Source: Escherichia coli
GTDB taxonomy: Bacteria; Pseudomonadota; Gammaproteobacteria; Enterobacterales; Enterobacteriaceae
Reading direction: 5' to 3' (one strand)
Length of the DNA stretch: 64,000 nt
Assembly: GCF_041886205.1 (NCBI RefSeq)
Contig: NZ_CP169029.1
Below the pieces are notes generated by a model. The model did not search any database. It had not been told where the DNA came from and was given only the letters and a program-made list of their open reading frames with translations. Shown piece after piece: positions 20,448 through 64,000 of the stretch (positions are counted from its first letter, which is position 1; every line of letters starts with the position of its first letter). The position numbers and the translations under genes are program-made.

Positions 20448-20601
20448 AAGTCCTCCGTTATGCACGGCTTAGCATAAGGAAGTACGTAACGTACGGCATT
20501 GTGCAAATGCCTAAAGGATGATGAAGATGTATGGAGTTGTGGTAAAGTTCACAGATTGTAAGGAGAACCCCTTCCCGTTTTCAGGAAGGGGTTGAGGGAG
20601 A

Positions 20602-60936: not shown

Positions 60937-61473
60937 TTACTCGTCCAGCAGAATCACTTTGCCGATATACGGCAGATGACGGTAACGCTGTGCGTAATCA
61001 ATGCCGTAACCCACCACAAACTCATCCGGGATCGAGAAACCGATGAATTCTACCGGGACGTTCACTTCACGACGGGACGGTTTATCCAGCAGCGTACAAA
61101 TCGCCAACGACTTCGGTTCGCGCAGGCTTAAGATCTCACGCACTTTCGACAGTGTATTCCCCGAGTCGATGATATCTTCAACAATCAGCACGTCCTTGCC
61201 ACGGATATCTTCATCCAGATCTTTGAGGATTTTCACATCACGGGTGGTGGACATGCCGCTACCGTAGCTGGAGGCGGTCATAAAGTCGACTTCATGAGAT
61301 ACCTGAACTTCACGGCACAGGTCCGCCATAAACATAAATGAGCCACGCAGCAGACCAACCAGCACCATATCGCTGCCGCTGTCTTTGTAACGCTCAGTAA
61401 TCTGACGACCCAGTTCGGCGATACGCGCTTTAATCTCCGCTTCGGGGATCATTACTTCTACAGTATGTTTCAT
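60937..61473 (-). CDS. hpt: hypoxanthine phosphoribosyltransferase Hpt (178 aa)
   Basis: Start at [22 protein letters not shown] (ATG 61473); PRPP-binding motif [13 protein letters not shown]; an in-frame ATG 4 codons upstream (61485) is an alternative. Confidence 0.9.
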
Positions 61474-61601
61474 ATCTCTAACCATATGATTTAAAAACAA
61501 ATCACTTCGCACGGGCAGGTTTTGGCACCGCAACAAAGCGCAAGACACGCAGTATACCAGTAAAACTATTCATTCGCGGAATCTGTTAATAAAGCTCGAA
61601 T

Positions 61602-61617
61602 TGTGATGACGATCACA
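61602..61617. promoter_or_regulatory. CRP-consensus palindrome TGTGA-N6-TCACA in hpt/gcd divergent region
   Basis: tgtgatgacgatcaca, perfect half-sites, about 62 nt upstream of gcd ATG. Confidence 0.55.
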
Positions 61618-61678
61618 CATGTTAAAACCTATAATTAATTGCTACTAAAATATTAATGAATTGAAATGGTGTCTCTTT

Positions 61679-64000
61679 ATGGCAATTAACAATACAGGCT
61701 CGCGACGATTACTCGTCACGCTAACAGCCCTTTTTGCAGCGCTTTGCGGGCTGTATCTACTCATTGGCGGAGGCTGGCTGGTCGCGATTGGCGGCTCCTG
61801 GTACTACCCTATCGCTGGTCTTGTGATGCTCGGCGTCGCCTGGATGCTGTGGCTTAGTAAACGTGCCGCGCTTTGGCTGTACGCAGCCCTGCTGCTCGGC
61901 ACCATGATTTGGGGCGTCTGGGAAGTTGGTTTCGACTTCTGGGCGCTGACTCCGCGCAGCGACATTCTGGTCTTCTTCGGCATCTGGCTGATCCTGCCGT
62001 TTGTCTGGCGTCGCCTGGTCATTCCTGCCAGCGGCGCAGTTGCCGCACTGGTGGTGGCACTGCTGATTAGCGGTGGTATCCTGACCTGGGCCGGATTTAA
62101 CGATCCGCAGGAAATCAACGGCACCTTAAGCGCCGATGCCACACCTGCGGAAGCTATCTCACCCGTTGCCGATCAGGACTGGCCTGCCTATGGTCGCAAT
62201 CAGGAAGGTCAACGCTTTTCACCTCTGAAACAAATTAACGCCGATAACGTTCACAAGCTGAAAGAAGCCTGGGTGTTCCGTACTGGCGATGTGAAGCAGC
62301 CGAACGATCCGGGTGAAATCACCAATGAAGTGACGCCGATTAAAGTGGGCGACACCCTTTACCTGTGTACCGCTCACCAGCGACTGTTTGCGCTCGATGC
62401 CGCCAGCGGCAAAGAGAAATGGCATTACGATCCTGAGCTGAAAACCAACGAGTCTTTCCAGCACGTAACCTGCCGTGGTGTCTCTTATCATGAAGCCAAA
62501 GCAGAAACCGCTTCGCCGGAAGTGATGGCGGATTGCCCGCGTCGTATCATTCTTCCGGTCAATGATGGTCGCCTTATTGCGATTAACGCTGAAAACGGCA
62601 AACTGTGCGAAACCTTCGCCAATAAAGGCGTGCTCAATCTGCAAAGCAATATGCCAGACACCAAACCGGGTCTGTATGAACCGACTTCGCCACCGATTAT
62701 CACCGATAAAACCATCGTGATGGCAGGTTCAGTTACCGATAACTTCTCAACCCGCGAAACGTCTGGCGTGATCCGTGGTTTTGATGTCAACACCGGGGAG
62801 CTGCTGTGGGCTTTTGATCCCGGCGCGAAAGATCCGAACGCAATCCCGTCTGACGAACACACCTTTACCTTTAACTCGCCAAACTCGTGGGCACCAGCGG
62901 CCTATGACGCGAAGCTGGATCTGGTGTATCTGCCGATGGGCGTGACCACGCCGGATATCTGGGGCGGTAACCGCACACCGGAACAGGAACGTTATGCCAG
63001 CTCGATTCTGGCGCTGAATGCCACTACCGGGAAACTGGCGTGGAGCTACCAGACCGTTCACCACGACCTGTGGGATATGGATCTTCCGGCACAGCCGACG
63101 CTGGCGGACATCACCGTTAATGGTCAGAAAGTGCCAGTTATTTACGCTCCGGCGAAAACCGGCAACATTTTTGTGCTCGATCGTCGTAATGGCGAACTGG
63201 TGGTTCCGGCACCGGAAAAACCGGTTCCCCAAGGTGCTGCCAAAGGCGATTACGTTACCCCTACTCAACCATTCTCGGAACTGAGCTTCCGTCCGACGAA
63301 AGATTTGAGCGGTGCGGATATGTGGGGAGCCACCATGTTTGACCAACTGGTGTGCCGCGTGATGTTCCACCAGATGCGCTATGAAGGCATTTTCACCCCG
63401 CCATCTGAACAGGGTACGCTGGTCTTCCCGGGTAACCTGGGGATGTTCGAATGGGGCGGGATTTCCGTTGATCCAAATCGTGAAGTGGCGATTGCCAACC
63501 CAATGGCACTGCCGTTTGTTTCGAAACTGATCCCGCGTGGTCCTGGCAACCCGATGGAGCAGCCGAAAGATGCCAAAGGCACGGGTACGGAATCCGGCAT
63601 TCAGCCACAGTACGGTGTACCGTATGGTGTCACGCTCAACCCGTTCCTCTCACCATTTGGTCTGCCATGTAAACAGCCAGCATGGGGTTATATCTCGGCG
63701 CTGGATCTGAAAACTAATGAAGTGGTGTGGAAGAAACGTATTGGTACGCCGCAGGACAGTATGCCGTTCCCGATGCCGGTTCCGGTGCCGTTCAATATGG
63801 GTATGCCGATGCTGGGCGGGCCAATCTCCACGGCGGGTAACGTGCTGTTTATCGCCGCTACGGCAGATAACTACCTGCGCGCTTACAACATGAGCAACGG
63901 TGAAAAACTGTGGCAGGGTCGTTTACCAGCGGGTGGTCAGGCTACGCCAATGACCTATGAAGTGAATGGTAAGCAGTATGTGGTGATCTCCGCAGGCGGT
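61679..64000 (+). CDS. gcd: membrane-bound PQQ-dependent glucose dehydrogenase Gcd, N-terminal 774 codons (3' end runs off window)
   Basis: ATG 61679 gives MAINNTGSRRLLVTLTALFAALCGLYLLIGGGWLVAIGG... (N-terminal TM segments) followed by quinoprotein beta-propeller; no stop before window end. Confidence 0.9.
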   Translation, partial: MAINNTGSRRLLVTLTALFAALCGLYLLIGGGWLVAIGGSWYYPIAGLVMLGVAWMLWLSKRAALWLYAALLLGTMIWGVWEVGFDFWALTPRSDILVFFGIWLILPFVWRRLVIPASGAVAALVVALLISGGILTWAGFNDPQEINGTLSADATPAEAISPVADQDWPAYGRNQEGQRFSPLKQINADNVHKLKEAWVFRTGDVKQPNDPGEITNEVTPIKVGDTLYLCTAHQRLFALDAASGKEKWHYDPELKTNESFQHVTCRGVSYHEAKAETASPEVMADCPRRIILPVNDGRLIAINAENGKLCETFANKGVLNLQSNMPDTKPGLYEPTSPPIITDKTIVMAGSVTDNFSTRETSGVIRGFDVNTGELLWAFDPGAKDPNAIPSDEHTFTFNSPNSWAPAAYDAKLDLVYLPMGVTTPDIWGGNRTPEQERYASSILALNATTGKLAWSYQTVHHDLWDMDLPAQPTLADITVNGQKVPVIYAPAKTGNIFVLDRRNGELVVPAPEKPVPQGAAKGDYVTPTQPFSELSFRPTKDLSGADMWGATMFDQLVCRVMFHQMRYEGIFTPPSEQGTLVFPGNLGMFEWGGISVDPNREVAIANPMALPFVSKLIPRGPGNPMEQPKDAKGTGTESGIQPQYGVPYGVTLNPFLSPFGLPCKQPAWGYISALDLKTNEVVWKKRIGTPQDSMPFPMPVPVPFNMGMPMLGGPISTAGNVLFIAATADNYLRAYNMSNGEKLWQGRLPAGGQATPMTYEVNGKQYVVISAGG

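Follow-up and report, generated by a model that had tools for sequence, protein, structure and literature searches.

In the gal operon one CRP site serves two promoters, galP1 being activated with the site at -41.5 and galP2 repressed with it at -36.5, and at class I promoters the canonical positions of CRP are -61.5 (the lac position), -71.5, -82.5 and -92.5. Single intergenic CRP sites that control transcription in both directions are described for araBAD-araC, gltA-sdhC, guaB-xseA and others and in the model system of El-Robh and Busby, and gcd-hpt is one of 11 divergent promoter pairs placed under a single CRP site (Shimada 2011, PMC3105977). In the same work gcd and hpt are two of the already known cAMP-CRP targets that genomic SELEX recovered as well, and the gcd-hpt 16-mer stands in two RegulonDB-derived rows of its supplement, one reading "gcd repressor -31.5" and the other "hpt activator -65.5".

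The DNA analysed here (the window) is a 64,000-nucleotide stretch of an Escherichia coli chromosome with the gene order yadH-yadG-can-hpt(-)/gcd(+)-cueO. Its hpt-gcd palindrome is the RegulonDB/EcoCyc gcd/hpt CRP site in another E. coli strain, identical to the catalogued one in sequence, position and locus, with no difference. The primary experimental papers on this site are reportedly those of Yamada in 1993 (J Bacteriol 175:568) and Izu in 2002 (Mol Genet Genomics 266:865). We consider it very probable that the back-to-back promoters of gcd and hpt have one cAMP-CRP operator in common. RegulonDB and papers of 1993, 2002 and 2011 already give this site together with its positions and roles, and what is added here is small: a cross-genus footprint, the observation that the site accompanies gcd and not hpt, and two natural alleles that remove it.

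The locus resembles gal in that one CRP dimer is credited with opposite effects on two promoters and in that repression is exerted from over the -35 region. The gal promoters, however, are co-directional and 5 bp apart, whereas the gcd and hpt transcription start sites (TSSs) are back-to-back and 98 bp apart, and the activated promoter has CRP at about -65.5 and not at -41.5. With araBAD-araC, gltA-sdhC and guaB-xseA it shares a single intergenic CRP site controlling both directions, but differs in that its two catalogued outputs are opposite in sign. The hpt promoter is like class I promoters such as lac in combining an upstream CRP site with a promoter whose -35 is poor (by our own reading of the sequence the -35 position of hpt is CCGCGA, accompanied by an extended -10), and differs from lac in that its CRP centre, at -65.5, misses the canonical -61.5 register by about 4 bp.

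The palindrome between hpt and gcd

The window contains the hpt coding sequence at 60937–61473 on the minus strand and that of gcd, which encodes the PQQ glucose dehydrogenase, at 61679–64000 on the plus strand, the latter continuing past the window end (RefSeq annotation; gene names were taken from an annotated genome that agrees with the window at every base of the hpt-gcd spacer region). Of 5426 complete E. coli genomes, 5424 have the 205-nt spacer between the two genes, and 4629 are at least 99% identical to the window there; the window carries the reference allele across this spacer.

The core palindrome TGTGATGACGATCACA (TGTGA-TGACGA-TCACA, no strand assigned) occupies positions 61602–61617 and is the 16-mer of the Shimada 2011 supplement. 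It agrees with CRP at 10 of 10 core bases and has T/A at the flanking positions 9 and 14. The 22-bp, footprint-sized site AATTGTGATGACGATCACACAT, likewise without strand, spans 61599–61620, corresponds to -42 to -21 of the gcd TSS and is the stretch given in capitals in RegulonDB; by a manual count it agrees at 16 of 22 positions with the CRP consensus, AAATGTGATCTAGATCACATTT. The preliminary description had reported a perfect CRP palindrome at 61602–61617, about 70 nt upstream of gcd and about 135 nt upstream of hpt. This is borne out: it is the only exact TGTGA-N6-TCACA match on either strand of the 64-kb window, and its centre at 61609.5 is upstream of both start codons, by 69.5 nt for gcd (ATG at 61679) and by 136.5 nt for hpt (ATG at 61473, minus strand).

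Window positions (w) convert to E. coli K-12 positions (k) by k = 202904 - w. The genomic SELEX-chip experiment with cAMP-CRP recovered the site as "gcd< >hpt, TGTGATGACGATCACA, 141294" (Shimada 2011, PMC3105977), and this peak centre, K-12 141294, maps to window 61609.5. A search for the 16-mer in the full text of papers gave no match, the sequence being present in supplementary tables only, and a search of the literature on gcd, cAMP and PQQ gave no further statement on regulation. We note that a Dam site, GATC, lies at 61611–61614 across the CRP spacer and the right half-site, and that GATCACA is present at this place in many of the other genera, not in all.

The gcd and hpt promoters

The 51-nt upstream string given for gcd in the supplementary TSS table of Kim 2012 is identical to window 61591–61641, so the gcd TSS (K-12 141263) is at 61641 on the plus strand, with a 38-nt 5' untranslated region; the read counts behind these TSSs are low (5–6 reads). 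A promoter consensus scan of the gcd strand found a -35 hexamer, ATGACG, at 61606–61611 within the CRP spacer, and after an 18-nt spacer a -10 hexamer, TATAAT, at 61630–61635, which is the gcd promoter ATGACG-18-TATAAT of Shimada 2014. Relative to the TSS at 61641 the CRP centre is at -31.5, in agreement with RegulonDB, and the 22-bp site at 61599–61620 encloses the -35 hexamer, as promoter occlusion would have it. In glucose, the gcd mRNA level of a strain with cAMP-independent CRP (CRP*) is below that of wild type, as is expected of a CRP-repressed gene. Two earlier suggestions, overlap of the site with the gcd promoter and repression of gcd by cAMP-CRP, are thus supported, the first because the mapped TSS puts the centre at -31.5, over ATGACG, and the second on the catalogued repressor role, the SELEX recovery and the lowered mRNA of the CRP* strain. 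The signs of regulation (gcd down, hpt up) are supported by the RegulonDB-derived supplementary table and by microarray.

Two further blocks of the gcd promoter may be noted here. TGTTAA at 61620–61625, in the promoter spacer (-21 to -16), is 97% conserved in the 24 hpt-gcd spacers compared below, which matches the level of the CRP half-sites, and AATTAATTGC at 61633–61642, running from the end of the -10 through the TSS, is as conserved as the half-sites. In Klebsiella pneumoniae a TSS at NC_009648 position 160190 is assigned to gcd with a 527-nt 5' untranslated region (Kim 2012). Its upstream string resembles the antisense of the hpt coding sequence (compare window 61141–61190), so this mapped "gcd" start appears to be inside hpt and not at a CRP-overlapped promoter.

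Within the initially transcribed region of gcd, +3 to +15 (61643–61655, plus strand), is a candidate IHF site, TACTAAAATATTA, which in E. coli has 2 mismatches to WATCAANNNNTTR; the latter is matched exactly at this place in 10 of the 24 spacers. A second IHF-like motif, AATCATATGGTTA, is located in the hpt 5' untranslated region at 61479–61491 (minus strand), has 1 mismatch and is conserved. IHF control is reported in Izu's 2002 work, and the motifs near gcd and hpt may correspond to the IHF sites of that work. We do not assign IHF sites in the E. coli spacer itself, where the matches are weak (1–2 mismatches).

The hpt promoter has an extended -10 element, TGGTATACT, at 61551–61559 on the minus strand, part of a conserved block, CAGTATACCAG, with 92–96% identity in the 24 spacers. 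It was picked by its conservation before the TSS data were seen, and the two hpt TSSs of Kim 2012, 61543 and 61550 (K-12 141361 and 141354; minus strand), are just downstream of it; the RegulonDB distance of -65.5 implies a start at 61544. The CRP centre is at -59.5 and -66.5 from the Kim 2012 TSSs, and none of the three distances is in class I register, which makes direct CRP activation of hpt geometrically atypical. Shimada 2014 proposed a different hpt promoter, TTAATA-18-TATAGG, on the opposite strand of the gcd -10. We rejected it: it would have its TSS at about 61621, where none has been mapped, and CRP at about +11.5, whereas mapping places the hpt TSSs at 61543 and 61550 and RegulonDB gives -65.5. 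The preliminary description missed both the hpt effect and the control by IHF.

Together these features suggest the following mechanism. With glucose absent and cAMP high, a CRP dimer would occupy the 22 bp at 61599–61620 and, centred at -31.5, would cover the gcd -35 and the upstream part of the promoter spacer, excluding RNA polymerase and repressing gcd by promoter occlusion. With glucose present cAMP would drop, the site would be vacated and gcd would be transcribed from the TATAAT at 61630–61635. The same dimer, 65.5 bp upstream of the hpt start that the extended -10 drives, would be the catalogued activator of hpt. That gcd repression works by steric occlusion is our inference, as distinct from what has been observed or published, namely the sequence, the mapped TSSs, the binding in SELEX, the two catalogued roles and the conservation; hpt activation may be a direct contact of the class I type.

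Occurrence of the site among hpt loci

To avoid bias, the comparison was anchored on the hpt protein and not on the site; it took in 80 loci of GTDB species genomes. In 23 of these hpt is adjoined by a divergent gcd N-terminus, which together with the window makes 24 spacers (Escherichia, Citrobacter, Enterobacter, Leclercia, Cedecea, Pseudocitrobacter, Phytobacter, Siccibacter, Pluralibacter, Mangrovibacter, Shimwellia and Pseudescherichia). In all 24 the top-scoring CRP-like site falls at the homologous position, with 10 of 10 core bases in 20 spacers and 9 of 10 in the other 4, whereas the second-best site of each spacer reaches only 6–7 of 10. The site starts at spacer position 129 or 130 in 22 of the 24 and at 127 in locus L082; the spacer of locus L027 is not comparable.

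The other 57 loci are without an intact divergent gcd; genera in which gcd does not adjoin hpt include Serratia, Yersinia, Erwinia, Pantoea and a Klebsiella sp. Two of the 57 still show the site, L008, which has an internal gcd deletion and keeps the promoter region, and L023, with upstream sequence of only 168 nt, and 55 are left. Within 300 nt upstream of hpt, a 10/10 CRP site is present in none of these 55 loci without adjacent gcd; one has a 9/10 site at a different position, against a chance expectation of about 0.5 loci (an estimate that assumes uniform base composition). Presence in 24 of 24 gcd-adjacent loci and absence from the 55 gcd-less ones indicate that gcd, and not hpt, is the gene the site accompanies. 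The extended -10 consensus TGnTATAcT is kept in many of the 55, and it recurs 5' of hpt in many Enterobacterales that have no adjacent gcd, among them Pectobacterium, Dickeya, Edwardsiella, Rahnella and Hafnia.

Three natural alleles are of interest at this locus. In E. coli P276M (locus L002, NZ_CP044293.1) positions 230–254, homologous to window 61603–61620, have GTGATGACGATCACACAT replaced by CGGGATGTAGACGATCTACATAGCA, which holds a new perfect palindrome, ATGTAGA-CGA-TCTACAT, with no change in the gcd -10 or at any flanking base. This is the most divergent of the 5424 hpt-gcd spacers, its differences are confined to the CRP site, and none of the other genomes among the 5426 of E. coli has the 38-nt variant. 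Its origin could lie in a natural operator swap, in a mutation templated by the palindrome or in an error of assembly. In Escherichia albertii NBRC 107761 (L005) a deletion of about 2.1 kb, with its junction between window 61606 and 63731, begins inside the palindrome just after TGTGA. The right half-site and the gcd promoter are lost, as are about 684 codons from the start of gcd, and the hpt extended -10 is retained. An 8/10 match 136 nt upstream of hpt in this genome, which might be taken for a decayed site, is really this deletion junction inside the palindrome. The soil metagenome-assembled genome CTSoil_132 (L008) has an independent internal gcd deletion, homologous to window 61685–63722, whose right junction, at 63723, nearly coincides with that of E. 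albertii (63731) and which leaves the CRP site TGTGATCATTATCACA and the promoter in place; this deletion may be real or an artefact of MAG assembly.

Because the hpt distances are off the class I register, we keep as a possibility, a rather unlikely one, that CRP acts directly on gcd only and that hpt is activated indirectly, by relief from competition or interference by the gcd promoter, by a change in local supercoiling or by IHF-dependent bending, and not through contact of CRP with the alpha-CTD. CRP centred at -65.5 (or at -59.5 or -66.5) would be more easily understood in this way, as would a site that is found with gcd in 24 of 24 loci and is absent from 55 gcd-less ones in which the hpt extended -10 often persists, and an E. 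albertii genome that lost the right half-site together with gcd and kept the hpt promoter. Against it, RegulonDB has CRP as an activator of hpt at this very site, and one CRP is treated as controlling both promoters by Shimada 2011 (PMC3105977). A related evolutionary reading, which we put forward tentatively, is that the CRP site is gcd's own and is "borrowed" by hpt, so that hpt activation would come about indirectly through silencing of the gcd promoter and not through class I contact. If this is true, the site knock-outs of E. coli P276M and E. albertii would leave hpt expression essentially CRP-independent.

Half-site conservation and the meaning of the operator

The reading we prefer, a cAMP-CRP operator shared by the two promoters, makes a prediction about which bases should be held constant. 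Over the 24 spacers, identity to the window is 98% in the ten bases of the half-sites, 59% in the 6-nt spacer between them, 97% in the gcd -10 and 61% in the rest. The E. coli gcd -35 falls in the variable CRP spacer and is not conserved in the other genera. Invariant half-sites around a free spacer are the pattern of an operator for a dimeric protein, and a -35 element would give the opposite. It is therefore very improbable that the palindrome is conserved as core promoter (a -35 or UP element) or as the operator of some other regulator and not for CRP: the overlap with the gcd -35 and the equal conservation of neighbouring blocks such as TGTTAA at 61620–61625 could be read in that way, but the -35 bases in the spacer vary while the half-sites do not, and the fragment was selected by cAMP-CRP in genomic SELEX.

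Taken alone, the exact match is only moderately improbable. Dinucleotide-preserving shuffles of the window have a mean of 0.05 exact matches, 5 of 100 shuffles contain at least one, and sites with one mismatch are not enriched (3 observed, 1.92 expected). Since near-matches are at chance level, it is the footprint across genera and the binding data in the literature that speak against chance. A functionless chance palindrome is refuted by the constant position of the site in about a dozen genera whose background identity is 61%, as well as by the published binding and regulation, and we give it almost no weight. Two of the one-mismatch sites in the window may be mentioned. TGTGGTAAAGTTCACA, at 20538–20553 between degP and cdaR, is 73–88 nt 5' of where the cdaR ORF starts (20465, minus strand) and is only a lead, given the chance-level count of such sites (3 vs 1.92); TTTGAGGATTTTCACA, at 61222–61237, is within the hpt coding sequence and is most likely due to chance.

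An RNA or DNA hairpin acting as terminator, attenuator or processing site can be set aside as equally negligible, for although a 6-bp stem with a 4-nt loop could form (-6 kcal/mol), an equal or better fold is reached by 25 of 200 shuffles (z = -1.11), there is no Rfam match and no T-run after the stem, the half-sites are invariant and do not covary, and the site is upstream of both mapped TSSs and so absent from either mRNA.

The practical value of this site is that of a positive control, a real and experimentally supported regulatory site found from raw sequence alone. As a cAMP-CRP operator it is a compact example of one CRP dimer with opposite outputs at two divergent promoters. It ties the expression of the periplasmic PQQ-dependent glucose dehydrogenase to glucose, gcd being off at high cAMP and on in the presence of its substrate, and such a response, on with glucose and off without it, makes physiological sense because glucose is what the enzyme acts upon.
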